The notes under the pieces were generated by a model. It was not told the origin of the DNA. It saw only the letters and a program-made list of their open reading frames with translations, and made no database searches. A DNA stretch of 64,000 nucleotides from Thermodesulfobacteriota bacterium (GTDB lineage Bacteria; Desulfobacterota_D; UBA1144; Nemesobacterales; JAJCZQ01): NCBI GenBank assembly GCA_965203965.1, contig CBDBDR010000017.1, positions 278,440 to 342,439 on the forward strand, written 5' to 3'. The first letter of the stretch is position 1; each line of letters begins with the position of its first letter. A program made the translations under genes and the position numbers. Shown here one piece after another: positions 8,325 to 61,017 of this stretch.

Positions 8325-8405
8325 AGGCAGGTAAGGTTTACGGGTCAAAATCCGCACCGTATTTCAGCCTCCACTCAAATTATTTGTTTAGGGTTATAAT
8401 AAAAA

Positions 8406-8437
8406 GGACACACGAGCTAATTGTGTGTCCTTTTAGT
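8406..8437 (+). terminator. Rho-independent terminator after the TonB-dependent receptor gene
   Basis: ggacacac-N9-gtgtgtcc stem followed by ttttagtttt. Confidence 0.5.
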
Positions 8438-8567
8438 TTTTCCTGTGGGTGGGTAAAAAAGTGCGGTGGTGAGGGTGGGTCGGTAAGAATCATATCTGCA
8501 TAATTATCTGAAAACCGTAAAATCTTTATTCTTCCTTGCGAAATTGCGTTCTGATTTCTTTAACATT

Positions 8568-9779: not shown

Positions 9780-10132
9780 TGGTGGAGGCGCTGGGAATCG
9801 AACCCAGGTCCGCTAAAGAGCCTCACTTAGCTTCTACATGCTTATCCTGCTTATTAAATTTCACAAGGCAAATACCAACAGGCGGGTCTAGCCTTGCAAT
9901 CCCGGTTTTAATCTCGCTGCTTTACCAACCGAGCAAAGTAAATCAGCCAGCCCGTTTTTATTACGCCTCATCAAGAACCACGGGCATGATCCCTGAGAGA
10001 CGTCACAGCATTATTTATGCTGCGAGTGCATTAATTGGTTCGGCACTTATTGTGCGCAATCAGTTTTACGAGTTAATCAGCTCGACATGCAGCTTAAGTT
10101 GTCTCGTTTACCGTCGAAGCCAATACGCCCCC
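9780..10132 (-). ncRNA. ssrA: tmRNA (SsrA), ~353 nt
   Basis: 5' end GGGGGCGUAUUGGCUUCGACGG… and 3' tRNA-like end …GGGUUCGAUUCCCAGCGCCUCCACCA. An internal reading frame ends …NALAA-UAA (candidate tag ~AEPINALAA). It sits immediately downstream of smpB. Confidence 0.9.

Positions 10133-13324: not shown

Positions 13325-13346
<22 letters not shown>
12240..13346 (+). CDS. ispG: 4-hydroxy-3-methylbut-2-enyl diphosphate synthase (IspG/GcpE)
   Basis: …ISIGGVDVGGGAAVSVQSMT… plus a C-terminal [4Fe-4S] cysteine region (CPGCGR…GCVVNGPGE). Start chosen at the internal Met (MFRKS…); the ORF opens at 12171. Confidence 0.9.
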
Positions 13347-13401
<55 letters not shown>

Positions 13402-25967: not shown

Positions 25968-26020
25968 AGTCCTTTCAACTAAATTGATAGCAGTTTCACA
26001 CTCAAGTAAGCTAACCTTTC

Positions 26021-26722
26021 ATGTTGCGAAACGGCTTTGCAGAGATTAAGAGGAGAGCGGCAAATTTTGCGGTTGACTTTATAAAATCAGGAATGGTTGT
26101 AGGACTTGGCACGGGTAGCACTGCGCAGTGCGTGATCATGGAGATAGCCGAAAGGTTAGATCGGAAAGAGTTACACAGTCTCATTTTTATTCCAAGCTCG
26201 CTCAAAACAGCAAACTTTGCTTCCGATTTGGGTATTGAGTTGTCTGGTATTGATAAGGTTCAGAGAATTGACATAAATATAGATGGTGCTGATGAAGTTG
26301 ATGCAAGTGGCAACTTGATCAAAGGTGGGGGCGGTGCTCTTCTCAGGGAAAAAATCATTGCACAGAGCAGTAGGAGGAACGTTATTGTTGTTGATCAAAG
26401 TAAGATATCTACTGAATTGGGTGAAAATTGGCATCTGCCGGTTGAGGTTCTGCCATTTGGATATCGCTTAGAGATCTCATACATTGCTTCTCTGGGGGCA
26501 AAGCCTGAGATTAGAAAATGTGTTGAAGGGAAAAATTTTAAAACCGATCAAGGGAATTATATACTTGACTGTGACTTCGGTTTAATATCTGATCCACAGT
26601 GGCTTTCATCTAAATTAGAACAGAGGGCAGGTATTATAGAGCATGGGTTATTTGTTCAAACCACAAATGACCTGATTATTGGAAGACCTGATTCAGTTGA
26701 GCACAGGCATATTACTGGATAG
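26021..26722 (+). CDS. rpiA: Ribose-5-phosphate isomerase A
   Basis: Motifs GLGTGSTA and …DGADEVD…. Confidence 0.85.
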   Translation: MLRNGFAEIKRRAANFAVDFIKSGMVVGLGTGSTAQCVIMEIAERLDRKELHSLIFIPSSLKTANFASDLGIELSGIDKVQRIDINIDGADEVDASGNLIKGGGGALLREKIIAQSSRRNVIVVDQSKISTELGENWHLPVEVLPFGYRLEISYIASLGAKPEIRKCVEGKNFKTDQGNYILDCDFGLISDPQWLSSKLEQRAGIIEHGLFVQTTNDLIIGRPDSVEHRHITG

Positions 26723-27481
26723 ATGGAAATTTCAGGGATTATCGGGGTTGTAGTACTTTTTTTTACAGGCATTTTTGCTGCTTTCTTGAACGTTACGGCT
26801 GGTGGTGGTTCAAGTATTACCTTGCCCGTATTGATCTTTCTTGGTGTGGATCCAGTAATGGCTAATGGCACAAACCGTCTGGCTATAATGCTTCAAAATG
26901 CCTCTGCTTCTGCTTCTTTCAGAAATGAAAAAATTTACCAGAGTAAATACACTCTTATCTATGCCTTGCTAACTATCCCGGGGTCTATACTTGGTTCAAT
27001 ATATGCAACTGGGATTAGCAACGAGGCTTTTAAGAATGCGCTAGGTATAGTCCTAATAGGTGTTATGATCACAGTTATTCTGCCAAGGTCTAAGCAGGTT
27101 ATTGAGGGAGTTTCTCTCAGAAATAGGTTTTCTTGGCTTATATATCCCGGGTTTTTTATTCTTGGATTTTACGGGGGATTTATACAGGTTGGCATTGGTT
27201 TTATGATAATTGCTCTTATCCAACACACACTCCAAATTGATATGTTAAAAACCAATATGCACAAGACGTTTACAATTATGGTAATTAACATCCCAGCTTT
27301 GATAATATTTATTGCTACTGGCAATATGAACTGGGTTTTTGGAGTTGCACTTGCCATAGGTACTATGACAGGAGCATGGTGGGCGGCAAAGATTTCTGTG
27401 AGAAAAGGGGATGGGTTCATAAGATACTTTTTTGCACTTGGGTTAGTTGCGATATCAATGAGGCTTTTCGGGTTGATCTAG
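26723..27481 (+). CDS. TauE/SafE-family (DUF81) membrane exporter
   Basis: 252 aa, polytopic, with two internal repeats each carrying a GGGSS/GGF-type motif (…TAGGGSSITLPVLIFLGV…). Confidence 0.7.
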   Translation: MEISGIIGVVVLFFTGIFAAFLNVTAGGGSSITLPVLIFLGVDPVMANGTNRLAIMLQNASASASFRNEKIYQSKYTLIYALLTIPGSILGSIYATGISNEAFKNALGIVLIGVMITVILPRSKQVIEGVSLRNRFSWLIYPGFFILGFYGGFIQVGIGFMIIALIQHTLQIDMLKTNMHKTFTIMVINIPALIIFIATGNMNWVFGVALAIGTMTGAWWAAKISVRKGDGFIRYFFALGLVAISMRLFGLI

Positions 27482-29538
27482 CCGTCCGTAGCTGAAGAAA
27501 CTTTCCAAACCTCCTTCTGGTAATTGTTAAGGTTGTAGTATATTCCCCTGTTTTCCAAAAGTTCATGGTGAGTTCCTGTTTCCACTATACTGCCCTTGTG
27601 AATTACTATTATCCTGTCGGCATGGCGAACATTTGATAGCCTGTGAGCTATTATGAGGCGGGCTTTTTCATCCTGACTTCTTATAGATTTCTGTATGTTC
27701 TTTTCAATTTTAGCATCTATGTTTGAGGTTGCTTCATCCATGATCAGGAGAGTTGATTTCTTGTTCAGAGCCTTTATAAAGGACACCACCTGAATTTCAC
27801 CAGATGATAGCGTGCTTTTTTGGGTACTGATCTTTCTGTCTTCTCCTAAAAGGGATTTGATTTTTTCATAGTCCAATGGCTCGTCTAAAATATCTTTGCC
27901 AAAAAGGAACAAGTCTTGAAAGATCGCTGTTATGCTTGCCCTCAGAAAATTGTTGTCAACATCGTTTATGTTTACACCGTTAAAGAGAATCTCACCTCTT
28001 TGCACTTTATAGAATTTGAGAATCAAGTTCACCACTGTTGTCTTTCCCGACCCTGTAAGTCCGACCAGTGCCACCGTATCTCCGGGACATATCTTAAAAG
28101 ACACGTCTTTCAACGTCCAATCCCTGTCGTTATAGGAAAACCACACTTTCCTGAATTCTATTATTGTGGAAGAATAGGAGGGTTTTTTATTGCCACTTTT
28201 TTCGATCGGTTCATGGATCAGGTCATAGAGGTTTTCCGATGCAGCTACGGCAGATTGGAAGATATTGTATCGCTCGGATAGCTGTTGTATGGGGTTGAAC
28301 AACATTCTGACGTAATACAGGAAGGCTATGAGCCCGCCTATAGTGAGGTCGTGATTTATCACGCCGCGTCCTCCTTGCCAGAGTATCAATCCTACTCCGA
28401 GTATGCTGACGTATTCAATGAATGGTCTGAACATTGCATAAGTCCAGAGTTGTGACATATTTGCCGAGTAATTTTCTCTGTTTATGCTGTTAAATCTCTT
28501 AAAATTTTCATACTCTTTGTTGTATAGCTTTATAAGGGTTATTCCCTGAATGCTTTCCTGCACAAATGAATTGAGCTTCCCTATTGTAATGCGTATATTC
28601 CTGAACGCGGTTTTCAATCTCATCCTAAACAGCGCCGCTGCAAAAACGAGAAACAGAGTGAGGCAAAGTATTATCAGAGTCAACTTTGCATTCATTGTAA
28701 ACATGATTGAAATAATTCCTATAATGACCAGAATGTCCTTGATAAACTGAACAAGCACGGAGGTATACATTTCATTGATAGCATTTACGTCGTTTGTTAC
28801 CCTTGTGGTTATTCTTCCCACGGGGTTTTTGTCAAAAAAAGACTGAGGAAGCCGAAGGATGTAGGAGAATGCATTGTGTCTTATACTGTGCATTATCTTG
28901 TGTCCCGAATAAAACAAGGAATAGGTAAATGCTGAAGTAAAGATAAATACACCGAGCAATCCCAGAGAGATAAAAACAAAGTATTTTACAAGAAATTTGT
29001 AATTGTTAGAGCGTAAAAACTGTATCTCGTTCCGTTCCAATAATTCAAGATCATTGAGTTTGGCGTAGTATATCGTCCGTTCGGCTTTGTAAAATACGTT
29101 CTCGTTGCGGTTAAAAATGTCCAGAAATTGAGTTCTTTCTCTATTATCTATTCCAGATATATTGAAGACCATATATCTCGCATCAGTTATTGAGCCACTT
29201 TTTTCAAGGTTTGTACTATCCACCCGGTCAATTCTGGAGATATTAACAAGGTAGCTGCCGTCTTCCAACCTTATAACCTGTTCGGGATATTTGTTGATAA
29301 GTTGATCTGTATTTTTTATGCTTCCATCTGATCTGACCCAAGTGGGGTATATATAATTATCAACGGCATATTTAGTCAGATAAGGGATTGACACTTCCAA
29401 CGCTGCCGTAAGTATCATAAGAAGCAAGGAAAGTATGAAAAGTGGTCTGTGAGGTTTCACATAGCTTAGAAGCCATTTTATGATCTTGAGGTCGTATGTC
29501 CTTGTTCTCTTTTTCTCTTCAGATTGAAATGTGCTCAT
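27478..29538 (-). CDS. ABC exporter with fused transmembrane domain and nucleotide-binding domain, a large extracytoplasmic insertion (~130 aa) between TM1 and TM2, and a degenerate signature motif (LSSGE)
   Basis: Walker A GLTGSGKTT, Walker B LLIMDEATSNID, signature LSSGEIQV (non-canonical). 686 aa. Confidence 0.8.
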   Translation of the reverse strand: MSTFQSEEKKRTRTYDLKIIKWLLSYVKPHRPLFILSLLLMILTAALEVSIPYLTKYAVDNYIYPTWVRSDGSIKNTDQLINKYPEQVIRLEDGSYLVNISRIDRVDSTNLEKSGSITDARYMVFNISGIDNRERTQFLDIFNRNENVFYKAERTIYYAKLNDLELLERNEIQFLRSNNYKFLVKYFVFISLGLLGVFIFTSAFTYSLFYSGHKIMHSIRHNAFSYILRLPQSFFDKNPVGRITTRVTNDVNAINEMYTSVLVQFIKDILVIIGIISIMFTMNAKLTLIILCLTLFLVFAAALFRMRLKTAFRNIRITIGKLNSFVQESIQGITLIKLYNKEYENFKRFNSINRENYSANMSQLWTYAMFRPFIEYVSILGVGLILWQGGRGVINHDLTIGGLIAFLYYVRMLFNPIQQLSERYNIFQSAVAASENLYDLIHEPIEKSGNKKPSYSSTIIEFRKVWFSYNDRDWTLKDVSFKICPGDTVALVGLTGSGKTTVVNLILKFYKVQRGEILFNGVNINDVDNNFLRASITAIFQDLFLFGKDILDEPLDYEKIKSLLGEDRKISTQKSTLSSGEIQVVSFIKALNKKSTLLIMDEATSNIDAKIEKNIQKSIRSQDEKARLIIAHRLSNVRHADRIIVIHKGSIVETGTHHELLENRGIYYNLNNYQKEVWKVSSATDG

Positions 29539-29553
29539 TGAATTAGGCTATTA

Positions 29554-31281
29554 CTATACTGTCTGTATTTTATAGGTGCTTGAGTATATGCCGTCGGTTT
29601 TCATAAGCTCTTCATGGTTTCCGATCTCAACTACATTGCCGTTCTCAAAAACTGCGATTTTGTCAAAACTGCTTATTCTGGACGATATCCTGCTTGAGAT
29701 AACAATAAGGGTATTCCCTTTCATTATTTTGATAATGTTCTGCAAAACTAGGCTCTCTGTTTGCATATCAAGAGATGAGAGCACGTCGTCAAGTATGAGG
29801 ACTTTTGGTTTCAAGAGTATCGCCCGGGCAATTGCTATTCTCTGCCTCTGTCCCCCTGAAAGACTAAGTCCTCTTTCACCTACAACTGTGTTAAATCCTT
29901 CCGGAAATTCAATGATCTCGTTATAAATTGCTGCCATACTTGTTGCCTCTTCTATCTCCTGCTCGGTGATGTTCGGGTTCATAAATGTAATATTATTTTT
30001 TATTGAGCCGCTGAAGATAGTTGTGTTCTGTGGCACACACACTACTGATCTATTTATTATTTCTCTCGGTATTCTTGTTATATCTACCTCATCAATGAAT
30101 ATATGATTTTCCTCAGTGTCATAGACCTTCATCAACAGGTTTATAAGTGTTGTCTTTCCCGACCCGGTTCTCCCTGTAATTGCAAATGATGACCCACTTG
30201 GTATTTCAAAATTTATTTTGTTTAAAGCGGGTTGGCTTCTCTCGTTGTAAATAAACTCCAGATTATTGAACCTGATATTTCCATTTAGTGGCTGCTCGTA
30301 TGCGTTTTTTATGTTCTCCTTTTTCGGTTGAACTTCAAATATTGCATTTAGCCTGTTTATAGAAGCATTCCCTCTTTTAATTATGTCCACAGACCACCCC
30401 ATTGCCATCATAGGCCAGACTAGCATGGAGATGTAGAACAGCATAGCCGCGAATTTTCCAAGTGAGATTTCCAGATTGATCGTGCTGATACCTCCCACTA
30501 AAATGAATATTGCTGCTGAACTTCCCGCCATGAAAGTTATCAGAGGTTGATAGACCCCCCAGATCCTCACAAGATTTATATTCCTGTCCAAATAGTCAAT
30601 GCTTGCTTTTTCAAAGTCTTTAAGCTCAGGTTTTTCCCTGTTGAATGCTTTTACAACTTTTATCCCAGATATTGATTGTCTTGCACTTTCAGTAAGTTCA
30701 GAAAATGAATCCTGAGTTTTTTGAAACCTTTTTTCAATCTGGTTTCCGAACTTATACATGAAAAACCCGAGTAAAGGGAAAGGAATAAATGCGTAGAGAG
30801 TTAGCTCTGGTGAAACGAAAAGCATTGCTATGAATATAAAGCAGAAGAGAAAAATTCCATCGTATGCAACAAGTACACCCAAACCACATGAGAATTTCAG
30901 AGTTTCAATGTCACTGACGGTATGTGCCATCAGATCCCCGACTTTACGGGAAGAGAAGAAATCAAAATTCAGACTTTGTATATGTTTGAAGAAATCGTTT
31001 CTGAGAGAATTTTCTATTTTTCTTGCTGATCCCATTATGAAATATCTCCAGCCAAGTCTGAAAACCGCCATGAAAAATCCCAGTCCGAGTATGTAGAGGC
31101 TATATCTTGTTATAAGGGCAGTATCCAGTTGATCCGGCTCTGTAAGGGTGTCAATTATCCACTGGATGATCTTTGGAACGGCAAGCTGGGCAATATCAAC
31201 AAGAGACAGGCATACAACACCAGCCAGAAAAGAGTATTTGTATTGAAATAGAAGGGATTTGATACTTTTTTTCTTGAACAA
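29554..31281 (-). CDS. ABC exporter (fused transmembrane and nucleotide-binding domains), the partner half of a heterodimeric exporter. Its Walker B has DD instead of DE.
   Basis: Walker A GRTGSGKTT, signature LSGGQRQRIAIARA, Walker B VLILDDVLSSLD. 575 aa. Confidence 0.8.
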   Translation of the reverse strand: MFKKKSIKSLLFQYKYSFLAGVVCLSLVDIAQLAVPKIIQWIIDTLTEPDQLDTALITRYSLYILGLGFFMAVFRLGWRYFIMGSARKIENSLRNDFFKHIQSLNFDFFSSRKVGDLMAHTVSDIETLKFSCGLGVLVAYDGIFLFCFIFIAMLFVSPELTLYAFIPFPLLGFFMYKFGNQIEKRFQKTQDSFSELTESARQSISGIKVVKAFNREKPELKDFEKASIDYLDRNINLVRIWGVYQPLITFMAGSSAAIFILVGGISTINLEISLGKFAAMLFYISMLVWPMMAMGWSVDIIKRGNASINRLNAIFEVQPKKENIKNAYEQPLNGNIRFNNLEFIYNERSQPALNKINFEIPSGSSFAITGRTGSGKTTLINLLMKVYDTEENHIFIDEVDITRIPREIINRSVVCVPQNTTIFSGSIKNNITFMNPNITEQEIEEATSMAAIYNEIIEFPEGFNTVVGERGLSLSGGQRQRIAIARAILLKPKVLILDDVLSSLDMQTESLVLQNIIKIMKGNTLIVISSRISSRISSFDKIAVFENGNVVEIGNHEELMKTDGIYSSTYKIQTV

Positions 31282-31441
31282 AAAAAACGACCTTTGGAAA
31301 TCGGGATTTTGAACTTTGTCAGGGTATAATATACCCGTGTAATTGTTAATTGATTTGCTACGATGTTAAATGGTAATAAATATAATGTTGCAGAAAATGT
31401 AAAAACAAAGAAATCCTTCTCTGCTTTCAACTAAAAATTTA

Positions 31442-31470
31442 TTGAAAATGATCAGTAAATCTGGTATTAT
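31442..31470 (+). promoter_or_regulatory. Sigma70-like promoter for gltA (-35 TTGAAA, 17-bp spacer, -10 TATTAT)
   Basis: Read directly from the sequence; a strong AAGGAGG RBS sits upstream of the gltA ATG. Confidence 0.35.
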
Positions 31471-31533
31471 CCATAAGCAGTTTTAGTTAGATATTATTAA
31501 AACCTATTCGTAACCACTCCAAGGAGGTTTTTT

Positions 31534-32826
31534 ATGGAAAAGAAAAAGGACACACTTACTATAACAGACAATAGAAACGGTAAGGTTTACGAAATTCCAA
31601 TAGAAAATGAAACTATTAGGGCAACGGACCTGAGGCAGATCAAACTGAAAGACGAAGATTTTGGAATGATGAGCTACGACCCTGCTTTTGGTAACACGGC
31701 ATCTTGTAAAAGCAAAGTTACTTTCATTGATGGTGAAAAAGGTATCTTACGCTACAGGGGCTATTCAATTGATGAGCTTGCTAAAAAAAGTTCTTTTCTT
31801 GAGGTTTCATACTTACTGCTTTATGGGGAGCTACCTACAAAAAAGCAGCTTGATGGTTTTACGCATGACATAATCCATCACACATACCTACATGAAAATA
31901 TTAAAAAGTTAGTTGATAGTTTCAGATATGATGCGCACCCGATGGGAATGCTCATGGGCACTGTTGCCGCACTTTCAACTTTCTATCCTGAAGCAAAAAA
32001 TATTTTTGACACTGAAAACAATGAACTTCAGATAAAACGGTTGATAGCAAAACTGCCAACCATCGCAGCGTTTTCCTACAGGCATATAATGGGACTCCCT
32101 TACATATACCCTGATAACGATCTCAGCTATACCGGGAATTTTCTCAATATGATGTTTAGAATGGCAGAGTTGAAATATGAACCAAACAAAGCTATTGAGA
32201 AAGCCATTGACGTTTTATTTATACTCCATGCAGATCATGAACAAAATTGCAGTGCAAGCGCAATGAGAAGTGTGGGAAGTTCTCAACCCGATCCCTATAC
32301 GTCAACCGCATCCGCTATAGGTGCTTTATACGGCCCATTGCATGGTGGTGCGAATGAAGCCGTTCTTCAAATGCTTCAGGAAATAGGATCAAAGGACAAG
32401 ATCCCCGAATATATTGAACGGGCTAAACGCGGTGAATTTAGACTTATGGGTTTTGGTCACAGGGTTTATAAAGCCTATGATCCAAGAGCCAAGATAATAA
32501 AAGATGCAGCACACGAGGTATTTGAAGAGACGGGGAAAAACCCTCTTCTTGAAATTGCACTTGAGCTTGAAAGAATAGCTCTTGAAGATGACTACTTCGT
32601 AAAACGCCGCTTATATCCAAATGTAGATTTCTATTCTGGGTTGATATATCAGAGTATGGGCCTGCCAACAAGCATGTTTACAGTGCTTTTTGCGATTGGA
32701 AGAACTCCCGGTTGGCTTGCACAATGGAAGGAGATGTTAGAAGACCCAGAAACAAGGATTGCAAGACCGCGGCAGGTTTATCTCGGATATGATCTAAGAG
32801 ATTATTCACCAAAATCCAAAAGATAG
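31534..32826 (+). CDS. gltA: Citrate synthase (type II)
   Basis: 430 aa. …GFGHRVYKAYDPRA… and other citrate synthase signatures. Confidence 0.9.
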   Translation: MEKKKDTLTITDNRNGKVYEIPIENETIRATDLRQIKLKDEDFGMMSYDPAFGNTASCKSKVTFIDGEKGILRYRGYSIDELAKKSSFLEVSYLLLYGELPTKKQLDGFTHDIIHHTYLHENIKKLVDSFRYDAHPMGMLMGTVAALSTFYPEAKNIFDTENNELQIKRLIAKLPTIAAFSYRHIMGLPYIYPDNDLSYTGNFLNMMFRMAELKYEPNKAIEKAIDVLFILHADHEQNCSASAMRSVGSSQPDPYTSTASAIGALYGPLHGGANEAVLQMLQEIGSKDKIPEYIERAKRGEFRLMGFGHRVYKAYDPRAKIIKDAAHEVFEETGKNPLLEIALELERIALEDDYFVKRRLYPNVDFYSGLIYQSMGLPTSMFTVLFAIGRTPGWLAQWKEMLEDPETRIARPRQVYLGYDLRDYSPKSKR

Positions 32827-32843
32827 AAAAGACAGTTTTAATA

Positions 32844-32880
32844 AAGATAAGCAGGGTTTTGTTGATCCCCTGCTTATCTT
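32844..32880. terminator. Perfect 13-bp-stem hairpin (aagataagcaggg-N11-ccctgcttatctt). A bidirectional terminator between gltA and the GC-rich RM island.
   Basis: Read directly. A/T-rich flanks on both sides. Confidence 0.5.
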
Positions 32881-32906
32881 TGGGGATTTATATATGAAAA
32901 TCTCAT

Positions 32907-33092
32907 TCAGGTGCCAGAATCTTTTACGACATTCATGGGTGAAAGTGCAACCCTGACCAGTTCACCGGGTGTAGGTACTGATCCATCCGGGTTTCGAATC
33001 ATGACAATCTCTTCCTTTTCCACCTTTAACGGTTGATAACTATGTGACTTGACCCGAACAGTCGGACGGTCATCAAGGTTTCGCTGTGTCAT
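32907..33092 (-). CDS. Small (61 aa) GC-rich ORF tightly coupled downstream of the Type IIG RM gene; function unknown
   Basis: AAAGGAG RBS 7 nt before its ATG and only 16 nt after the RM stop. Same GC-rich composition as the RM gene. Confidence 0.4.
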   Translation of the reverse strand: MTQRNLDDRPTVRVKSHSYQPLKVEKEEIVMIRNPDGSVPTPGELVRVALSPMNVVKDSGT

Positions 33093-33108
33093 GTCTCATC
33101 TCCTTTCG

Positions 33109-36100
33109 TTAAACATCATTTTCCGCAGTATTTAGCGTCATCGTGATTGTCTTCATGATTTGGTCAGTCTCGGACAGGATTTTGAGGATGCTTTGATAAT
33201 GCTTCACATCCTCGAAGCTGAGAACGCGACCTTTGCGGTATTTGAGCCATTTCTGGGCGGGCTGATAGCCGCCAATGTAGAAATCCCATGATACGGCGGG
33301 CGCGTCGGCAAAATACTGGCTGTCATTGATCCAGACGCAGCCATCCTCGAAACGGAACTTGCCCACCTCGTTGTCACCGTCGCCCGTGAACGGGTAGGGG
33401 GTCGCACCGATTGAGGCAGGTTCCATCAGGTGGAGCTTGCGTAACTCCGCGCCCTTGGCGGACACGTCCCAGAATTCGTCTGGGGTGGTCGGCCACGGGA
33501 TGCGGGGGAAGTCGATTTTCAGGAACTCGGCATAGGTATCGCGATAAGCGGGACAATGCAGCACGCCATAGATGTAATCGAACACCTGCATCTCGTCGGG
33601 TTTGCCATCTTCGGGATGATCAGCCAGTTTTTGAATCTTCTTGTAAAGCTTTGGATCGAAATTCACCCGCTGAGTCTGATCGAGATCTTGTTCGTCGGGG
33701 TAGAGGTAGAGGGGGGCAAAGATTGATCCAGTTGTTGCCTCTCCGCACTTCACATCTGATACATACGTTGAGCAGTAGAAATGATTAACGCCCTTTTTGT
33801 TGCTTCGCGCTGTGATGAGTGAAATATTTGGATGTAACATATGTTTAGAAACATCCATTCTAGGCCATGAAACCAACGCAGGATGCAGAGCGACTTTCCT
33901 GTTATCAAAAGGCCGAAACGCATAGGGAACGATATAATCAAGGATGTTTCCACATGGAATGCGCTGTCTCTCTGCATCAAGCTTCCAATCTCTAGTGTCC
34001 CCCGCTGGAAATTTTTTGGAAGTCTGGGAAAAGAATTTCCTGCGAATAGTTTCTGTCGAGATGCTTTCGTCGCAAATTTCTGAAATTCTCTCCTGAATTT
34101 CTGCGTTGCTTTCTCCCACGGCAACAGGGTCACGAGATGTTTGTATCCCCGTAGTATTCAAAGGGAAAATCTCTACAATTGAGAAACCATTTTGATATGC
34201 AGGAGGAGCACTTACCCCTTTCCCGTTGAAGGTGAAATATGGCTCCGACGGATTCAATTTTTCTGATGAAATGCTGATGCGGTTAAGTGACTGAAGACGC
34301 TCATATTTAAGTTCACAACTTCCCCAAAGTTCAGAGAATGTGACTTCAGAGTTTCTGATCTGAGGTTGAGGCTTCTTCTTGATTGCTATGACTATCGAAA
34401 CACCCTGTTGGATATCGAATACGTTTTCATCCTTGATGCCATTTGGCGAAATTTCACCATGTTTGGAATTTCCATGTAAATCAACGACATGAATTTTGTC
34501 GAACGTCTGCATAAGGTGCCATCTCATTCCTCGAAAAGTCGGGTTGTCGAGGTAGCCATGGTTGGTGATGAAGCCAAGAATGCCTTCGCCGTTCTTTGCG
34601 ATCAGGCTCTCCGACAGGCGGATGAACTTGACGTAGTCATCATGCAAGGAGTGCTTTCGCTCTCCAAAGTGTTTGCCATCAACGTATTTGTAGTCCTCGA
34701 TCAGATTGCTGATCCAATCGCCCATGTTCTGCGAAATCCCAGAGTATGGTGGATTCCCGATCACGCACATGATGGGCATGTCGCGCTTGATTGTGTTCGC
34801 GCCCTTGGCCTCGCGGGATAGCCATTGCGTGAAAGGCAGGGTTTGGTTGGCAGGCTCGCCTTCCTCAAGGCTGTTGGTCAGATAGACTGACAGGCGCGGT
34901 GGGTTTCCCGTGGGCTTATAACCTAGCTCGGTCAGGATCATGTCGAGTTTCATATGGCACATGGCATAGGACGCCATGAGAAGCTCGAAGCCGTGCAGGC
35001 GGGGAATCAGATCGTCCTCGATGTATTTCGACCACATCGCGGGTGCGATGTCCTGAATCTTGGGTGCGATTTGCTTGATCACCTCGGCCAAAAACGTGCC
35101 TGTTCCTGTGGCAGGATCGAGGATTTGAACGCGGTGAACATCCTTCTTGATCGCGACGGGTTTGCCCTTCCTGTCGGTCTTGCCTGTGTCCCAGTCGATG
35201 GTCACTTTCGACGTGTCAGCCAGTCCATCGGGCAGGCTGAATTCCGTCTGCAAGACCTCGTCCACGGCGCGCACGATGAAATTCACAACGGGTTCGGGTG
35301 TGTACCAAACCCCTCGTGCCTTGCGTTTATCGGGGTTATAGGCAGCGAGGAATGTCTCGTAGAAATGAAGGAAGGGATCGTTCCGGCCCGTCAGCTTACC
35401 AAACCCCTCCATCAGCTTTGCCACATCACAGGCTTGGAACACGCGCGCAAGATCATCGATGATCCACGCGATGCGGTCGTCGAGATCATAACCAGCTATG
35501 TAGCTGAATAGCGAGCGCAGAAACGGGTTGGACTTGGGTAGCAGCTCCAATGCCTCCTGGCGGCTGAATGTGTCCAGACTGGTGTCGTGGAGCCGAGCTG
35601 CAAACATCCCATAGGCGATAGTTTCAGCATAAATGTCGGCGAAATCTTCTGCCTCGATGTTGTGGATCAGGTTTTCCCTGAACGCCTCATATTGTCCTAC
35701 AAGTTCTTCTGCATCGTCAGCCAGGGTATTTTGCAGCACATCCTTGATCAGAATGGCTTTACCTGCCATTCGTTCGGCCAGTTCACGGGGGCTGGTGATC
35801 GTTTGGGGCCTCTGGGCAACAAAATCCCGCAGTAGATTTTCGAGTGTCGTGTATTGATCCGGCTTCGGTTGAATGCCCGGAGTGAGGTCGGCGATGCGTA
35901 CCGAGGCGGTCAGTTCGCCGTCACGGTAAAAATCCCAATCAAGGCAGTTGGTATAGATCAGATTGGGTAGTGCAGCGCGGTAGCGTTCCTGTTGTGCCTT
36001 GTTGCTGCCTTTGAGGCCACGAATTCCAACGGGAATATCTTTGGCCTCAACGTGGCCGATCACAATATCACCCTGCGACACGATAAAATCAGGCGCACCA

Positions 36101-36258
36101 CATTCGATCTTTTTGGGTTCGTTCAGGGCTGTCACATCATCCGAAATCGAGGACAACAGATTTTGCAAGGTGGCGCGGTATGAGTGTTCCGTTGCATTGC
36201 CCGTATTATAAATGCTGGTGACTTCTACCAGATACCCTTGAATATTCAATGCCTGCAA
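33109..36258 (-). CDS. Single-chain Type IIG/IIL restriction-modification enzyme (MmeI family): N-terminal PD-(D/E)xK nuclease, gamma-class N6-adenine methyltransferase, target-recognition domain
   Basis: N-terminus …APDFIVSQGDIVIGHVEAKD… (D…EAK). Methyltransferase motif X GVWYTPEPVV, motif I DPATGTGTFL, motif IV GNPPYSG. 1049 aa. GC-rich relative to the genome. Confidence 0.75.
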   Translation of the reverse strand: MQALNIQGYLVEVTSIYNTGNATEHSYRATLQNLLSSISDDVTALNEPKKIECGAPDFIVSQGDIVIGHVEAKDIPVGIRGLKGSNKAQQERYRAALPNLIYTNCLDWDFYRDGELTASVRIADLTPGIQPKPDQYTTLENLLRDFVAQRPQTITSPRELAERMAGKAILIKDVLQNTLADDAEELVGQYEAFRENLIHNIEAEDFADIYAETIAYGMFAARLHDTSLDTFSRQEALELLPKSNPFLRSLFSYIAGYDLDDRIAWIIDDLARVFQACDVAKLMEGFGKLTGRNDPFLHFYETFLAAYNPDKRKARGVWYTPEPVVNFIVRAVDEVLQTEFSLPDGLADTSKVTIDWDTGKTDRKGKPVAIKKDVHRVQILDPATGTGTFLAEVIKQIAPKIQDIAPAMWSKYIEDDLIPRLHGFELLMASYAMCHMKLDMILTELGYKPTGNPPRLSVYLTNSLEEGEPANQTLPFTQWLSREAKGANTIKRDMPIMCVIGNPPYSGISQNMGDWISNLIEDYKYVDGKHFGERKHSLHDDYVKFIRLSESLIAKNGEGILGFITNHGYLDNPTFRGMRWHLMQTFDKIHVVDLHGNSKHGEISPNGIKDENVFDIQQGVSIVIAIKKKPQPQIRNSEVTFSELWGSCELKYERLQSLNRISISSEKLNPSEPYFTFNGKGVSAPPAYQNGFSIVEIFPLNTTGIQTSRDPVAVGESNAEIQERISEICDESISTETIRRKFFSQTSKKFPAGDTRDWKLDAERQRIPCGNILDYIVPYAFRPFDNRKVALHPALVSWPRMDVSKHMLHPNISLITARSNKKGVNHFYCSTYVSDVKCGEATTGSIFAPLYLYPDEQDLDQTQRVNFDPKLYKKIQKLADHPEDGKPDEMQVFDYIYGVLHCPAYRDTYAEFLKIDFPRIPWPTTPDEFWDVSAKGAELRKLHLMEPASIGATPYPFTGDGDNEVGKFRFEDGCVWINDSQYFADAPAVSWDFYIGGYQPAQKWLKYRKGRVLSFEDVKHYQSILKILSETDQIMKTITMTLNTAENDV

Positions 36259-37088
36259 AATCGCGCCCCGCTGCGTTTGTTGCCATCTGTGAACGGATGA
36301 TCCTTGACGATAAAGTACAGAAGATGCGCTGCCTTTTCTTCCAAACTTGGATAAACGTCTTTTCTAAAAGCGGATTGAAACACACCGCCGACGATACCCG
36401 TCACACTCCCGCTTTCTCGCTCCTGCCCGAAAATTTCCGTAGCTTCTTTTTTTCTCACGAATTCTTTTTTTAACACCACCAAAGCCGCTTTGAGATTTTC
36501 CGCCGTAAATGTTATCTGCTTCCTACTTGCCGCCGATTTTGGTAAACTGCCTTTATCATAAGCGTCTAGTGAAAACCAAGTACCCGCAAAAATACTGACA
36601 AGCTCCAAAATGTCCTTTGCTTTGACTTCATCGCTTGCGGGCAGCAAATCTCGTACGTTGGACACTGCTTGCATAAATTTTTTGTAGTTCTTCCCGGCGC
36701 GCTTTTTGTTGATCGAGTAGCCAAGGAGCAAGTGTTGTTTGAGTGTTTGGGTCGCCCAGATACGGAATTGCGTGGCTTGTTTAGAATTTACACGGTAGCC
36801 CGCAGAGAGTATAGCGTCTAAATTGTAATATTCTATTTGACGAGTTACTTGCCTCTTCCCTTCTTTTTGAACTGTTTCCAAAACGGAAACGGTTGATTTT
36901 CTGTTGAGTTCACCTGTCCGATAAATGTTTTTCAAATGCTTTGATATAGCAGGCCTCTGGACGTCAAATAAATCGGCGATTTGTTGTAAAGTCCCCCAGA
37001 TTGTATCCTTTTCAATATCCCCGCGAAACGCTATTTCTCCGTTTTCGGTTTGATACAAAACAATGTTCGGCTTAGTTTTCATGCTCAA
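36246..37088 (-). CDS. RhuM/Fic-DOC-family protein. The ORF ends only 8 aa after the Fic motif HPFTDGNKR, so it is probably C-terminally truncated.
   Basis: Fic motif HPFTDGNKRSG at the extreme C-terminus. The ORF overlaps the RM gene start by 13 nt. Confidence 0.55.
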   Translation of the reverse strand: MSMKTKPNIVLYQTENGEIAFRGDIEKDTIWGTLQQIADLFDVQRPAISKHLKNIYRTGELNRKSTVSVLETVQKEGKRQVTRQIEYYNLDAILSAGYRVNSKQATQFRIWATQTLKQHLLLGYSINKKRAGKNYKKFMQAVSNVRDLLPASDEVKAKDILELVSIFAGTWFSLDAYDKGSLPKSAASRKQITFTAENLKAALVVLKKEFVRKKEATEIFGQERESGSVTGIVGGVFQSAFRKDVYPSLEEKAAHLLYFIVKDHPFTDGNKRSGARFCRH

Positions 37089-37338
37089 CCCCGCTCAAAT
37101 TCTTCAAAATTCGCTTATTTAATTCCGCTTCTTCCTTGATCTGTTCCTCAAACTCATCTTTTATATCTTCTTCTCTAAATATATCCCTAAAACTCGCACC
37201 CTCTGCACTACTACCTATGGGTGATGTAAATACTTTGTTCTTATTAAACGGAGGATCTAAGTCAATACAGTCAGAGTTTATTCCTTCTAATACTTCAAGA
37301 TTGTCATGACAGAATATAGTTCTATTACTTACATTCAT
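37072..37338 (-). pseudogene. N-terminal fragment (88 aa) of a beta-class amino-methyltransferase (N4-C/N6-A) with a DPPF motif
   Basis: …IFCHDNLEVLEGINSDCIDLDPPFN… matches methyltransferase N-termini of the PF01555 type. Full-length enzymes are more than 250 aa. Confidence 0.5.
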
Positions 37339-37339
37339 C

Positions 37340-37364
37340 TAATAATTTCAGTAATTTGGTTCAT
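37340..37364. repeat. 25-bp exact direct repeat (taataatttcagtaatttggttcat), copy 1. On the minus strand it encodes MNQITEII, matching a piece of the IS1595 transposase C-terminal region.
   Basis: Identical 25-mer at 41936-41960, inside the IS1595 transposase fragment ORF. Confidence 0.7.
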
Positions 37365-37402
37365 CATTCTCACCGCACTATTGTATATAATTCCTTGTTT
37401 TT

Positions 37403-37753
37403 TTAAGTGCTTGAAAACTGTTTGCTTATAATACTGTTGTAGTAAAAGTCAATTGTATGCTCTATTGATTTCAAGAACAGATCAATGATTTCTTTCTGAC
37501 CTTCTTCTGATTTTATAAAGTTTGATACGTCTGTTTCTTTTTTTAGTCTGAGATTCAGAACTTCGGAGAATGATTCTGTAATGGTTTGCCGATCATCTTC
37601 AAGCATTGTTTCTATCAATGCCTGATCTTGGACGTCATATTTTTTGTTTGCAATTGCAGTTGAGAGGTTGTCTATAAATTCAGGAACTACCAGTTTAGGA
37701 TGGCTTTCTTTTACAATGGACTCAAAGGTTTTTATGAGGTCTTGAGAGTACAT
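37403..37753 (-). CDS. Hypothetical acidic protein (116 aa)
   Basis: ORF only; no recognisable motifs. Confidence 0.35.
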   Translation of the reverse strand: MYSQDLIKTFESIVKESHPKLVVPEFIDNLSTAIANKKYDVQDQALIETMLEDDRQTITESFSEVLNLRLKKETDVSNFIKSEEGQKEIIDLFLKSIEHTIDFYYNSIISKQFSST

Positions 37754-37795
37754 ATTATTGAATTTCTTATTCTATAATTCAGTCTATAAAGAACT

Positions 37796-38821
37796 TCAGT
37801 TTTTAAAGCCGTCAATATTTTCCAGAAGAGCAGTGATAAGTTTGATCGTGTTTTTTATATCTTCTTTGTATGCAATGGAACTTGGGCTATGCAAATATCT
37901 GGTGGGTACTGATATTACTGCGGCACGGCTTCCCTTTCCTGTTACCTGCATTGCGGTGGCGTTCGTTCCACCTGCCTTTTTGACCGTGATCTGGGTTGGT
38001 ATATCTTTCTTTTCTGCAAGTTCATTTATATCAAAAGAAAATTTTCTATCTGCCACCAAATACCTATCGGACAGCCTTATTTCGGGTCCTTTACCAACAT
38101 TTGCAAGAGATTTGTCTGCAGGTATACCCGGGACGTCCATTGCCACGGTGCCTTCCAGAGCAACAACAAAATCAGGTTCAACAACAGGGGTTATAAGCCT
38201 TGCCCCTCTTAATCCCGTTTCTTCCTGAACCGTTGCCGTAACAAAAAGATCACATTTTATATTAGGGTTTTTACTCAATGCTTCAATTATGATGAACAAG
38301 CCCATTCTATCATCCAATGCCTTTGAAATTACCGCGTCTTCAGTTTCTGTGAACTTGGTGTCAAATGATGCAAAATCTCCAACTTTGACCAAACTCTTAA
38401 CTTTTTCAGCCGATAATCCAACGTCAACCACGCAGTCCTCAATTTCCGGAACTTCTTTGTTATTGCTGCCTTTGCTTACGTGGGGAGGAATAGCTGCTAC
38501 CATACCGACAAGCTGGGTTTTACCCCACACTACTAACCTTTGAGCGTAATAAACCCGTGGATCTATGCCACCGAGAGGGGTCAATCTTATAAAACCGTTG
38601 TCATCTATATGGTGAACCATAAATCCGACTTCATCCGTATGAGCGTCAAGGACGACCCTGGGACCCTGTCCTTTTATATGTGCAATGATATTTCCCATTG
38701 CATCCTTGGAAATATCTTTTGTGAACTTTTTCAATTCATCAGTAACAACGTCACTTATGAGGTCTTCTCCGCCTGGCATGCCCGGGGTGTTGCATAATAT
38801 TTTCAACAACTCTATGTTCAT
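37796..38821 (-). CDS. M42-family metallo-aminopeptidase (FrvX/CelM-like)
   Basis: 341 aa with M42 family features (…VLDAHTDEVGFMV…, …DDRMGLFIIIEAL…). Confidence 0.85.
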   Translation of the reverse strand: MNIELLKILCNTPGMPGGEDLISDVVTDELKKFTKDISKDAMGNIIAHIKGQGPRVVLDAHTDEVGFMVHHIDDNGFIRLTPLGGIDPRVYYAQRLVVWGKTQLVGMVAAIPPHVSKGSNNKEVPEIEDCVVDVGLSAEKVKSLVKVGDFASFDTKFTETEDAVISKALDDRMGLFIIIEALSKNPNIKCDLFVTATVQEETGLRGARLITPVVEPDFVVALEGTVAMDVPGIPADKSLANVGKGPEIRLSDRYLVADRKFSFDINELAEKKDIPTQITVKKAGGTNATAMQVTGKGSRAAVISVPTRYLHSPSSIAYKEDIKNTIKLITALLENIDGFKN

Positions 38822-38902
38822 AGTTTTTTGATTATAGTCTAAAACCCATTATTTTCCAGATTTTAATTGATTTGATGGGCTGAAAATTCTAATATTTACA
38901 TT

Positions 38903-40261
38903 ATGGATGAGAAACTATATCCCGCTAACAATCCTCCCCTGTTTGTCCAGCCAGAGTCTACCAAACCCCTTGCCGAAAGACTGAGGCCACAAAGACTGGA
39001 AGACGTCGTTGGTCAAGATCATTTATTGGGAGAACAAGGGATGATAAAAAAGATGATAGAAGCAGGTGCACTTCAACCCATGATTTTCTGGGGCCCTCCA
39101 GGGACTGGCAAAACGACCCTTGCCCAGATCATAGCAGATAAGATCAATGCCATTGTATACTCTATAAATGCAATATCCTCAGGTGTTAAAGACCTACGGG
39201 AAGTAATTGAAAAGGCAAAAGAGTCTATACTGACGGGTAAAAAAACAGTTTTATTTGTGGATGAAATTCACAGGTTCAACAAAGCACAGCAGTCAGCTCT
39301 TTTGAAAAGCGTGGAAGATGGAACGGTTGTGCTTATCGGTACCACCACTGAAAACCCTTCTTTTGAAGTTATTGCTCCTCTTTTGTCACGGTCTCAGGTC
39401 TACACTTTAAATTCACTCAATGAAGATGACCTGAATGAAATTTTGAGACGTGCTTTGGAAAACATCCCAACCCTTGATACAAAGAACAAAGGTTCTCATC
39501 TAAAAATTAATATAGATAACAAAGCCAGAAGTGAGTTGATCAGGTTGGCAGGTGGGGATGCGAGAGTTATGCTTAACGCTCTGGAAACTGCAATTCATAC
39601 CACTTCTCCCGTTAATAATGGAATAACAATAGATATAAACACGGTAAAGCAAGCATACCAGACCAGCAGATACAGGTATGATCAATCTGGGGAAGATCAT
39701 TACAACACCATTTCAGCTTTTATCAAGAGTGTGAGGGGCAGTGATCCCGATGCTTCAGTTTACTATCTGGCAAAGATGATAGAAGCAGGTGAAGATGTTA
39801 AGTTCATTGCAAGGAGACTTATAATACTTGCTTCGGAAGATATAGGGAACGCGGAGCCTTATGCACTTACTCTGTCAACAAGTTGCTTTACAGCTGTAAA
39901 TTACGTTGGTTTACCGGAAGCGGGGTTGATACTTGCACAGACTGCAACCTATCTTGCAAGTTGTCCAAAGAGCAATGCCTCTTACTTAGCACTTGGTAAA
40001 GCAGTTGAAGATGTTAGGTCAAAGCCAAATCTTGAAGTGCCAATGCATTTGAGAAATGCACCGACAAAACTTATGAAGGAACTTGGATACGGTAAAAACT
40101 ACAAATATTCACATAACTATGATGAGCATTTTGTAGATCAGGACTTTCTGCCTAAAGGATTGAGGGATAAAATATATTACAAACCAAATGAAATAGGGCG
40201 TGAAGTCTCGCTCAAAAAATACCTTGAAACCAAGTGGAAAAAGAGGCAAAAAAAGGATTAA
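38903..40261 (+). CDS. rarA: Replication-associated recombination protein A (AAA+ ATPase RarA/MgsA)
   Basis: Walker [14 protein letters not shown], Walker [13 protein letters not shown]-terminal MgsA domains. Confidence 0.9.
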
Positions 40262-40641
40262 TCTTTTCTTTCTATCAATTCCACCTTGTAACCATCTGGG
40301 TCTTCAAAGAACGCAATAACGGTGTTTCCGTGCTTCATTGGGCCAGGAGGTCTTGTCAGCCTACCACCGAGTTTTTCTATTTTTTCGCAAGCCAGATATA
40401 TATCTTCAACCCCAAAAGCTATGTGTCCATAGCCATTACCCAGATCATATTTGGAAGTATCCCAGTTATGTGTCAACTCTAAAAATGGTTCAGTATCGTC
40501 CCCGTAACCCAGAAATGCGAGGCTGAATTTTCCATCGGGATACTGTGTAGTCCTATGATGTTTGAGTCCCAATGATTCCGTGTAGAATTTTATTGATCTT
40601 TCAAGATCACCGACCCGTATCATTGTATGAAGGTATTTCAT
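40258..40641 (-). CDS. gloA: Lactoylglutathione lyase (glyoxalase I)
   Basis: 127 aa. [27 protein letters not shown]… is classic GloA. Confidence 0.85.
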
Positions 40642-41017
40642 TTTTAGGCTCCTACTCTAAAGTTTGGGGGTTATATACCTACTTACCCGAACTGATATAA
40701 CTACTTATACTATGATTAAGTTTTATCTTTTGTTGGTTTGTAGTTTATATTGGGGATTGTTTTATCAGTAGGTTGTAAGTCATTTTGAGGTAGATTTCTC
40801 TTTTGAGTATCCGTTTTCTTTTTAGCGAATGTAGCATCTACGACTTCTTCCATAGTTGCTCTTATCGGTGGTATGATTTTTTGTTTTCTACCCATTTTTG
40901 ATATTTACCTGTTTTAACGTCTTTACCTACTTTGCACTAACGTTTATTATACCTACTGATTTATACACTTATGTATTAAGAGCTAAGAAATACGTATTTT
41001 ATAACAAATAAAGTTAC

Positions 41018-41305
41018 TTATACTGACATTAGTATAGTTGGAATTAATATTACTCTCGCTATCCATTTTATGGTGTTAATACCACCATATAACTTATTTA
41101 ACTTTTTTGTATCTTTCCTTACTTTTTTCATATCCTTTCTTACTTCACCTATATCTTCTCTCATATCATTTCTTAATTCGGTGAATTGAGTATTCATCAA
41201 GTTAATGATATCTGTATTTGTAGGTATATCTTGCATAAAAACTAAACTCCTTTCTAATGTAGTTTTTTTCTCACTGGTAATATCATATTCACCATCCATA
41301 TTCAC
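41018..41305 (-). CDS. Small coiled-coil protein with a C-terminal TM segment (XhlA-like/phage-associated)
   Basis: 95 aa. Lys/Arg/Asp-rich coiled-coil …ELRNDMREDIGEVRKDMKKVRKD… and C-terminal hydrophobic helix IKWIARVILIPTILMSV. Confidence 0.3.
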   Translation of the reverse strand: MNMDGEYDITSEKKTTLERSLVFMQDIPTNTDIINLMNTQFTELRNDMREDIGEVRKDMKKVRKDTKKLNKLYGGINTIKWIARVILIPTILMSV

Positions 41306-41466
41306 ATTTATACATTAGTTTTTAGCAAGAATTTAGCAACCCTGACTTTGGGACTTCCTAGTAAGTGGGTATGAATGAATTTCACCTCACACTTTTACCC
41401 ATTGTTAGGGTTGCTACTTTTTTTACTGTGATTGTTTAATATATAAGTAAATCATAAAAAACTACT

Positions 41467-41661
41467 ATGAAAGTCAGAGAAATAATAAAATTAATAAAAG
41501 ATGATGGGTGGTATCTAGATAAACACAAAGCAACAAGTCATAGGCAATTCAAACATCCATCTAAGCCAGGTAAAGTAACAGTAGCTGGAAATTTAGGAAA
41601 GGAATTAAAGAAAGGAACAGAACATAGTATAATTAAACAAGCAGGAATACAATTACATTAA
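41467..41661 (+). CDS. hicA: HicA-family toxin (mRNA interferase) of a type II toxin-antitoxin system
   Basis: 64 aa. …LIKDDGWYLDKHKATSHRQFKHPSKPGKVTVAG… (YcfA/HicA signature). Confidence 0.8.
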   Translation: MKVREIIKLIKDDGWYLDKHKATSHRQFKHPSKPGKVTVAGNLGKELKKGTEHSIIKQAGIQLH

Positions 41662-41670
41662 AAACGGAGG

Positions 41671-41892
41671 TTGATAACAATGAAAAACAAATATCTTATT
41701 ATAATTGAAAAAACAGGCAATGGTTATAGTGCTTATGCTCCTGATCTTCCAGGATGTATAGCTGCTGCGGACACCCTTGAAGAAACCAGACAACTTATGT
41801 CTGAAGCCATTGAATTTCATATAGAGGGACTAAAAGAAGATAACTATGCCGTACCTCAACCAATAAGTGTTGCCGGATATGTTACCTGCTAA
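41671..41892 (+). CDS. hicB: HicB-family antitoxin (UPF0150)
   Basis: 73 aa. …YLIIIEKTGNGYSAYAPDLPGCIAAADTLEE…. Confidence 0.7.
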   Translation: MITMKNKYLIIIEKTGNGYSAYAPDLPGCIAAADTLEETRQLMSEAIEFHIEGLKEDNYAVPQPISVAGYVTC

Positions 41893-42290
41893 CCCACCAA
41901 TTCTTTATAACTTAGTTTTTTTCCGAGCAAGTCGTTAATAATTTCAGTAATTTGGTTCATAGTATCCAGAGGTCTCAAATTATGCCGACCCACGTACTCA
42001 TCAATATATCTTTGTAGATGCTTAACCGACATTTTATGATACACACCAATATAACCTCTTTTTAACATACTCCAGAAAGACTCAATACCATTAGTATGAG
42101 CTTTATCGTTTATATACTCACCAACGCTATGATTTACCGCAGTATGATCAAACCCCTTTTTACTCAACCCTTTATATCCCCTATGCTGAATTGCTTTTAT
42201 CAAGTAGTTTATAGTAAATTCTTTAGCAAGAAATATTTTTGTGTAATTGGGTATATAACCCCCCTTAATATACAATGTTAGTTCATTCAA
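41889..42290 (-). mobile_element. C-terminal fragment of an IS1595-family (ISXO2-like) transposase; an IS remnant with no N-terminal half
   Basis: …HTNGIESFWSMLKRGYIGVYHKMSVKHLQRYIDEY… matches the DDE_Tnp_IS1595 C-terminal region. Full transposases are ~300 aa. Confidence 0.6.
41936..41960. repeat. 25-bp exact direct repeat, copy 2 (identical to 37340-37364)
   Basis: Exact match read from the sequence. Confidence 0.7.
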
Positions 42291-60986: not shown

Positions 60987-61017
60987 AAATTGTTCAGTCT
61001 GATAATCTTTTTAGGCG

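Follow-up and report, generated by a model that had tools for sequence, protein, structure and literature searches.

DrdV, a restriction-modification (RM) enzyme of Type IIL from Deinococcus (PDB 7LO5/7LVV), carries in 1029 residues a nuclease, a helical connector, a methyltransferase and a target-recognition domain (TRD). It methylates single sites slowly and on one strand, and when several unmethylated sites are bound it cleaves fast and at a fixed distance (bioRxiv 10.1101/2021.01.06.425610). Here we describe a relative of this enzyme in a 64,000-nucleotide stretch of a Thermodesulfobacteriota bacterium (GenBank assembly GCA_965203965.1, contig CBDBDR010000017.1, positions 278,440 to 342,439), hereafter the window. 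The gene lies beside gltA, in a segment of 4.2 kb that also contains a truncated gene with RhuM and Fic domains and an open reading frame (ORF) of 61 aa. From its sequence we conclude that the RM gene encodes an intact, single-protein DrdV-like Type IIL enzyme; the 4.2-kb segment is an ordinary, horizontally acquired mobile defence cassette in a strain-variable slot.

The likeness to described systems is partial in each case. The window enzyme is just ~20% identical to DrdV, and by sequence its N-terminal 370 residues match solely the PADLOC model of its own family; its clade, found mainly in Alphaproteobacteria, has a TRD that is modular and swapped. With LlaGI and LlaBIII, which are Type ISP enzymes, it shares a homologous methyltransferase and TRD (1e-30 to 1e-49) and the Pfam domain Type_ISP_C, but it has no SF2/RecA ATPase-translocase module and is ~500 aa shorter. 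Because this module is absent, the cleavage mechanism is expected to differ from that of Type ISP enzymes. As to MmeI (PDB 5HR4) and BpuSI (3S1S), the MmeI-specific Pfam domains were not matched at their cutoffs, there is no sequence-level match, and the TRD belongs to another family.

Domain organization and relatives of the RM enzyme

The RM ORF can be aligned end to end with 50 homologs (coordinates of the features are collected in Table 1). Its likely start is a TTG at position 36249, which yields a protein of 1046 aa with an MNIQ N-terminus as in the homologs; the database entry (P0001) has the same 1046 aa. A first-pass annotation of this DNA had recognized a single chain with a PD-ExK N-terminus, a gamma-class N6-adenine methyltransferase and a C-terminal TRD, the architecture of Type IIG/IIL enzymes, and this description stands: the chain matches the PADLOC model REase_MTase_IIG at 1.9e-283, residues 696-1036 correspond to Pfam PF18135 (Type_ISP_C, 9.8e-78), and N6_Mtase and Eco57I match as well. 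The motifs that it had picked out are present and, moreover, invariant in the 50 homologs (P56-D57, E71-A72-K73, WYTPE at 318-322, DPATG-GTF at 381-389 and NPPY at 502-505).

Sequence and structure searches place the enzyme closest to DrdV and the Type ISP methyltransferase-TRD lineage. A sequence search of the PDB matched LlaBIII (2e-33), LlaGI (1e-30) and DrdV (7lo5), and a profile built from 50 sequences placed DrdV 7lo5 on top (4.4e-51, over residues 378-947), followed by LlaBIII and LlaGI; the methyltransferase domain aligned to those of all three. Foldseek, run with a full-length model, ranked DrdV first (1.7e-27) and MmeI 40th. Given the poor quality of this model, the nuclease domain was re-modelled alone, and its best matches were DrdV and BpuSI. 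The connector (residues 131-330) belongs to a part of the model, residues 133-340, that is all-helical, with low to moderate confidence, and it matches 3khk weakly, in an HsdM-N-like manner; in the Pfam search the enzyme hit no family of helicases or ATPases. The chain thus combines the features by which a DrdV-like enzyme can be told: an N-terminal PD-(D/E)XK nuclease, a gamma-class N6-adenine methyltransferase with a TRD of the Type ISP/DrdV type, and a helical connector with no ATPase hit.

A strain-variable slot beside gltA

An exact-protein look-up of gltA recovered a contig of a sister strain (L088, 49.7 kb, sample ERZ25068762) that is 99.1% identical to positions 23534-32881 of the window and 98.9% identical to positions 37093-42000. 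Between these conserved blocks L088 carries 1.9 kb of different DNA (L088 9349-11296), encoding a 401-aa HsdS-TRD/DUF559 fusion and a further HsdS fragment, so that two close strains with 99% identical flanks differ in the cassette that they hold. In the L088 fusion, a Type I HsdS recognition domain is joined to a DUF559 (Vsr-like) endonuclease domain; this alternative cassette resembles a decayed Type I system, and no HsdM or HsdR is found nearby.

The left edge of the window's cassette falls inside the 3' arm of the gltA hairpin, at ~32877-32881, and the right edge at 37092/37093. The hairpin lies downstream of gltA (31534-32826, plus strand), and its arms (32843-32856 and 32868-32881) are 14 nt each and 100% complementary; the hairpin named in the first-pass annotation is real, and the ORFs that it listed all exist, on the minus strand. 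Its claim of horizontal acquisition is likewise supported, by the absence of the cassette from L088 and by its deviant GC content and GC content at third codon positions (GC3).

No direct or inverted repeats were found to bound the cassette. Neither does it hold mobility machinery of its own: there is no integrase and no complete transposase in it, just the 8-codon tail of an IS1595 transposase. A simple transposon or integrase-mediated insertion was rejected because the edges have no such repeats, and for the same reason we infer that the cassette is exchanged through homology in its flanks. Several independent samples yielded the end next to gltA, with gltA itself, the small ORF and, on contigs that extend so far, the RM gene's 3' end; the RhuM/Fic end came from SRR23871865 only.

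Compositional mosaic and exchange of the recognition segment

We computed composition in 400-bp windows and used the GC3 of 41 other ORFs as a reference. The cassette has a GC content of 0.489 versus 0.393 outside (400-bp windows beyond it: mean 0.393, sd 0.044, maximum 0.545), and the whole RM gene a GC3 of 0.589 versus 0.386 +/- 0.061 in the other ORFs. Both measures, GC and GC3, are off by more than 3 sd. The RhuM/Fic gene (GC3 0.437) and the 61-aa ORF (0.473) are both mildly above background. The jump in GC described in the first-pass annotation is hence real as an elevation, but the uniform value 'well above 50%' is not: GC stands at 0.50-0.58 in the 33.0-33.8 kb part, falls to 0.43-0.45 at 33.6-34.6 kb, with 43% at 33.8-34.6 kb, rises to 0.52-0.57 over 34.6-36.2 kb and drops again to 0.43-0.48 at 36.0-37.0 kb, with 43-45% over RhuM/Fic. 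There is a compositional signal in what had been called a GC-rich island, yet the term oversimplifies it: properly computed, the region deviates from the 0.393 background as a mosaic and not as one uniform island. Two further stretches with a GC content of 0.49-0.545 lie elsewhere in the window (61001-62200 and 53801-54600), within an ORF of 401 aa (61018-62223) and one of 504 aa (53323-54837). Each protein has a database entry from the source contig, and relatives of the 504-aa one, at least 90% identical, occur on the sister-strain contig.

Within the RM gene, GC3 is 0.55-0.76 apart from the TRD segment, with conserved parts reaching 0.66-0.76 and the TRD part at 0.40-0.42. Identity to homologs varies along the chain as well: median values versus 49 homologs are 63% for the nuclease segment, 86% for the connector, 87% for the methyltransferase, 33% for the TRD segment (aa 601-860) and 75% for the C-terminal segment. 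The same aa 601-860 segment is common only to P0002-P0004 (80-88%) and, by eye, P0010. We considered amelioration toward the host as the origin of the mid-gene trough and rejected it, since the trough is deeper (GC3 0.24-0.46) in L001, an allele that shares this TRD and lies on a 55%-GC contig. Judging by these comparisons, the segment is an inherited AT-rich specificity module that is swapped between alleles; as a step in the history of the family, recognition segments would have been exchanged as modules among its members.

Where the RM gene is found elsewhere also speaks of its foreign origin. The enzyme has more than 8000 homologs, and the 80 related genomic loci that we scanned belong almost all to Alphaproteobacteria, with a few other Pseudomonadota and one sponge cyanobacterium (52-76% identity); plasmid copies occur in Paracoccus, Agrobacterium and Pseudomonas. 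The family is thus one that circulates mainly among Alphaproteobacteria and on plasmids. One locus, L111 (5987-9165; ERZ25068762 ctg152695, 1.7 Mb), comes from the same sample as L088; there the RM gene forms a 53%-GC island in a 66%-GC genome, and its allele, P0045, has an identical IS1595-tail junction and a different TRD. Because the gene is a low-GC island in L111 and raised in GC3 in the window, it is foreign in hosts at both compositional extremes. The P0045 protein is reported twice on the L111 contig (at 280 kb and 1697 kb), possibly through assembly overlap of a circular contig.

Junction with a truncated RhuM/Fic gene

The RhuM/Fic ORF spans 36246-37088 (280 aa), with an ATG at 37082, and matches the Pfam families RhuM (1.4e-23) and Fic (5.6e-9) and the PADLOC model PDC-S23 (6e-95, positions 1-272 of 327). 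Like RhuM/Fic-Doc proteins of this type it has the RhuM domain and the motif HPFxDGNKR, with 59-71% identity to full-length homologs; in contrast to them, it is deprived of its last ~53 residues and ends in the tail of an IS1595 transposase. That the gene breaks off abruptly after its Fic motif had already been noticed, and the alignment with homologs (nearly all of those listed are 316-342 aa long) stops there indeed, at residue 273 of ~328, the 5 remaining residues being contributed by the IS1595 tail. A full-length PDC-S23 protein, with a RhuM N-domain and a complete Fic fold in ~325 aa, is not what this copy encodes, and it is probably a pseudogene.

The IS1595 tail is in frame with the truncated Fic gene, and the two are joined within a 9-nt microhomology, AGCGGGGCG (S-G-A). 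Homology between the window and loci L026 and L111 begins 14-16 nt upstream of the RM start, and in both of these loci the upstream frame continues as the C-terminus of an IS1595-family transposase, which ends in GKRLRYVDLIADNGLSSGAQFCRH and a stop codon. In the window, the TTG of the RM gene overlaps the TGA of the truncated ORF, and homologs begin with ATG and MNIQ. No promoter of the RM gene's own was seen upstream; because stop and start overlap, its translation may be coupled to that of the truncated Fic ORF. We propose that the final 8 codons of an IS1595 transposase would already have been attached to the RM copy when it arrived, and that this tail would then have recombined into the RhuM/Fic gene at the 9-nt microhomology, deleting the Fic C-terminus and leaving the RM start codon overlapped with the stop of the truncated ORF.

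The IS1595 tail accompanies the RM gene in genomes of 39%, ~60% and 66% GC, the last being that of L111. In locus L035, a separate IS1595 fragment (5265-5903) ends ~100 nt upstream of another member of the RM family, which hints at a repeated association between IS1595 and this family. The L026 copy (6001-9183) has a frameshift after 866 codons and transposase remnants on its flanks. Across the 80 genomic RM loci that were scanned, no RhuM/Fic gene was found beside the RM gene.

A small-protein family behind restriction genes

The 61-aa ORF belongs to a family of 33 representative clusters (HMMER, E<=1e-3), with members of 53-88 aa, mostly ~55-65 aa, plus two longer ones of 106 and 1107 aa, and with the consensus VRVKPHSYQPSKAELEE..IRK.DGS.PTPEELAR..LRPV.VVEDPDA. 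Neither Pfam nor NCBIfam has a model for it, and searches with the 61-aa ORF gave no plasmid hit and no viral-contig hit. The small ORF stands beside the RM gene in only one of the 80 related loci (L026), where it was detected only with the more sensitive phmmer; the L026 ORF is degenerate, and nucleotide identity over the stop codon of the RM gene and the initial 14 codons is 89%. A conserved three-gene system was consequently rejected, with RhuM/Fic in 0 and the small ORF in 1 of the 80 RM loci. The coupling between enzyme and small ORF asserted in the first-pass annotation needs the same distinction: enzymes of this family do not in general have the small ORF as a partner, but it is a recurrent follower of several kinds of RM genes.

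Indeed, in metagenome loci homologs lie directly behind such genes, on the same strand: in L098 and L099 a homolog follows an SfiI-like restriction endonuclease (REase) with an N6_N4 methyltransferase, after a 15-nt spacer (L098 4986-5165); in L103 and L104 it comes directly after another Type II REase (PDLC03562) with a methyltransferase (L103 3697-3876; L104 4986-5165); and in L107 (3047-3247) it overlaps the stop codon of an 872-aa N6_Mtase/Eco57I-domain protein. In L102 and L106, the ORFs upstream of the homolog are IS66 and IS110 transposase-like ORFs together with unknown ones; L102 has the same small ORF and 110-nt leader as L103 and L104, yet no REase was detected upstream. Four MKWU01 contigs among these loci come from an Aplysina aerophoba sponge metagenome (PMC5099237, PMC5649159). 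The recurrence of a position after RM genes, drawn from few independent loci, is suggestive. It is possible, though we hold it for doubtful, that the 61-aa ORF represents an undescribed small-protein family functionally accompanying unrelated restriction enzymes; in the window, the gene would travel at the 3' end of the cassette.

The conserved right flank and neighbouring genes

The fragment of a DPPF methyltransferase that had been counted with the island lies in the conserved flank instead, since identity with the sister strain resumes at 37093. It aligns weakly to positions 7-77 of the 399 of MTase_II, a Type II methyltransferase model of PADLOC, and L088 has it too, reading IDLIYLDPPF there and without IYL in the window. 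The 8-codon IS1595 remnant next to it is confirmed by a 25/25 nt match to a transposase fragment further downstream, a 133-aa C-terminal ORF at 41889-42290 (Pfam DDE_Tnp_IS1595, 6e-20), and the earlier description of the place as an old RM- and IS-scarred site is correct, with a methyltransferase remnant and an IS1595 scrap in the flank.

That IS1595 (ISXO2-like) fragment, on the minus strand, adjoins a HicA/HicB toxin-antitoxin pair (41467-41661 and 41671-41892, both plus strand) in a region that is AT-rich (29-31% GC at 40.8-41.6 kb) and kept in L088. Between the methyltransferase remnant and an M42 peptidase gene there is an ORF of 116 aa (37403-37753, minus strand) for which no family match was found and of which L088 has a near-identical 116-aa copy. 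The only RNA genes within the window are a tmRNA (9780-10132, minus strand; tag peptide AEPINALAA) and one tRNA, a tRNA-Met (13325-13401).

Table 1. Features of the cassette and its edges, in window coordinates (RM, restriction-modification; L026, L088 and L111, loci compared in the text).
Feature	Position	Strand	Evidence
gltA terminator hairpin	32843..32881	+	perfect 14-nt inverted repeat, 11-nt loop
Strain-variable cassette, ~4.2 kb	32877..37092	.	comparison with L088
61-aa ORF, small-protein family	32907..33092	-	16 nt after RM stop, AAAGGAG Shine-Dalgarno
DrdV-like Type IIL RM gene, 1049-aa ORF	33109..36258	-	Pfam, PADLOC, PDB, Foldseek
Conserved C-terminal part of Type_ISP_C domain, aa 861-1049	33109..33678	-	Pfam PF18135
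Variable target-recognition segment, aa 601-860	33679..34458	-	GC3 trough, low homolog identity
Gamma-class N6-adenine methyltransferase, aa 331-600; DPATGTGTF, NPPY	34459..35268	-	Pfam N6_Mtase, Eco57I
Helical connector, aa 131-330	35269..35868	-	structure model, homolog identity
N-terminal PD-(D/E)XK nuclease, aa 1-130; D57, E71, K73	35869..36258	-	
8-codon IS1595-family transposase tail (SGARFCRH and stop)	36246..36274	-	29 nt identical to L111, nearly so to L026
RhuM/Fic-Doc gene (PADLOC PDC-S23 type), truncated after HPFTDGNKRSGA	36275..37082	-	Pfam, PADLOC, alignment
88-aa N-terminal remnant of beta-class (DPPF) methyltransferase	37072..37338	-	PADLOC MTase_II 1.6e-4
25-nt, 8-codon IS1595 transposase scrap (MNQITEII), conserved flank	37340..37364	-	25/25 nt identical to 41936-41960

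Discussion

By analogy with DrdV, one molecule of the RM enzyme would bind an asymmetric target, flip an adenine into the NPPY site and slowly methylate one strand, thereby protecting the host. When several unmethylated sites are bound together, as on incoming phage DNA, molecules would pair through their connectors, exchange nuclease domains and cleave the two strands a short, fixed distance away from the site. Even if it falls outside the MmeI family, the enzyme probably works in a way similar to that of MmeI-like enzymes.

Membership in the MmeI family itself, as the first-pass annotation had it, would agree with the domain order and the size class of a Type IIL enzyme, and 5hr4 does appear in the Foldseek list, at 4.9e-4. 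However, the sole Pfam trace of MmeI is a weak match to MmeI_Mtase (E 4.6e-4, 19.9 bits) below the 27-bit cutoff, with no hits of MmeI_N, MmeI_hel, MmeI_TRD or MmeI_C; neither phmmer nor a profile search picked up the 5HR4 sequence at E<=1; the TRD falls in the Type_ISP_C family; and in Foldseek DrdV is ahead of MmeI by more than 20 orders of magnitude. The relatives of the enzyme are DrdV and the Type ISP methyltransferase-TRD lineage, and we deem the MmeI label very unlikely and have dropped it. Its kinship with that lineage could in turn suggest a Type ISP enzyme like LlaGI or LlaBIII, which translocate at the expense of ATP and cut when they collide: its methyltransferase and TRD have homologs in these two enzymes, Pfam calls the C-terminal domain Type_ISP_C, and NCBI annotates several homologs as 'type ISP restriction/modification enzyme'. 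Yet such enzymes are much longer (1578 aa in the LlaBIII chain, 4xqk, and 1406 aa in the nuclease-deleted LlaGI chain, 5ffj, versus 1049 aa here), no helicase or ATPase family, and hence no RecA-like SF2 ATPase, was matched in the window enzyme, residues 131-330 are modelled as a helical connector, and the nuclease domain is closest to those of DrdV and BpuSI. This makes a Type ISP mechanism hardly credible, and of the readings weighed here the least probable.

It is improbable too, although less markedly so, that the gene is silent or decaying, a methyltransferase-only or unexpressed passenger whose native promoter and ATG were removed by the IS1595/Fic rearrangement. Such a fate would be in line with the TTG start where homologs have ATG, with the absence of a promoter-like site upstream on the minus strand, with the L026 copy, a pseudogene that has the same junction, and with the nuclease-less P0010 of Roseinatronobacter monicus, a 923-aa protein of the same TRD type that begins after the nuclease domain and may be a methyltransferase-only derivative. 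But the 1049-codon ORF of the window is intact and has kept every invariant catalytic residue, several independent samples contain the end of the cassette next to gltA, and the overlap of stop and start permits translational coupling to the upstream ORF. As a whole, we consider it likely that the best explanation of the locus is a strain-variable defence cassette with a DrdV-like Type IIL enzyme. A number of points nonetheless weigh against this explanation. The RM gene starts with TTG, without a clear Shine-Dalgarno sequence or promoter of its own, and related copies can decay, as the frameshifted L026 and P0010 without its nuclease domain. The full-length AlphaFold model is poor (pLDDT 60.7, pTM 0.40), so that the overall Foldseek ranking leans partly on sequence. 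DrdV being ~20% identical, the cleavage distance and the multi-site requirement may differ from those described for it. Finally, as to a vehicle of transfer, neither an integrase nor a complete transposase nor flanking repeats were found.

Our results move the enzyme from the MmeI family to the DrdV/Type-ISP lineage, and they make the NCBI name 'type ISP' misleading for its homologs, because the translocase is missing. The family of small proteins trailing RM genes is the sole element of the cassette that might lead to something new: if its accompanying role is true, the small protein might temper restriction while a new host is being colonized, or else it might mark where a mobile unit that carries RM genes ends. 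The locus otherwise offers a clean natural example of a defence 'slot' that is filled differently in strains with 99% identity, of TRDs exchanged as modules within a Type IIL family, which shows in a single gene as a dip in composition, and of an IS1595 tail that is carried along with an RM gene through genomes of differing GC content. The window enzyme and the three relatives that share its TRD would be, in this family, candidates for a new Type IIL specificity.

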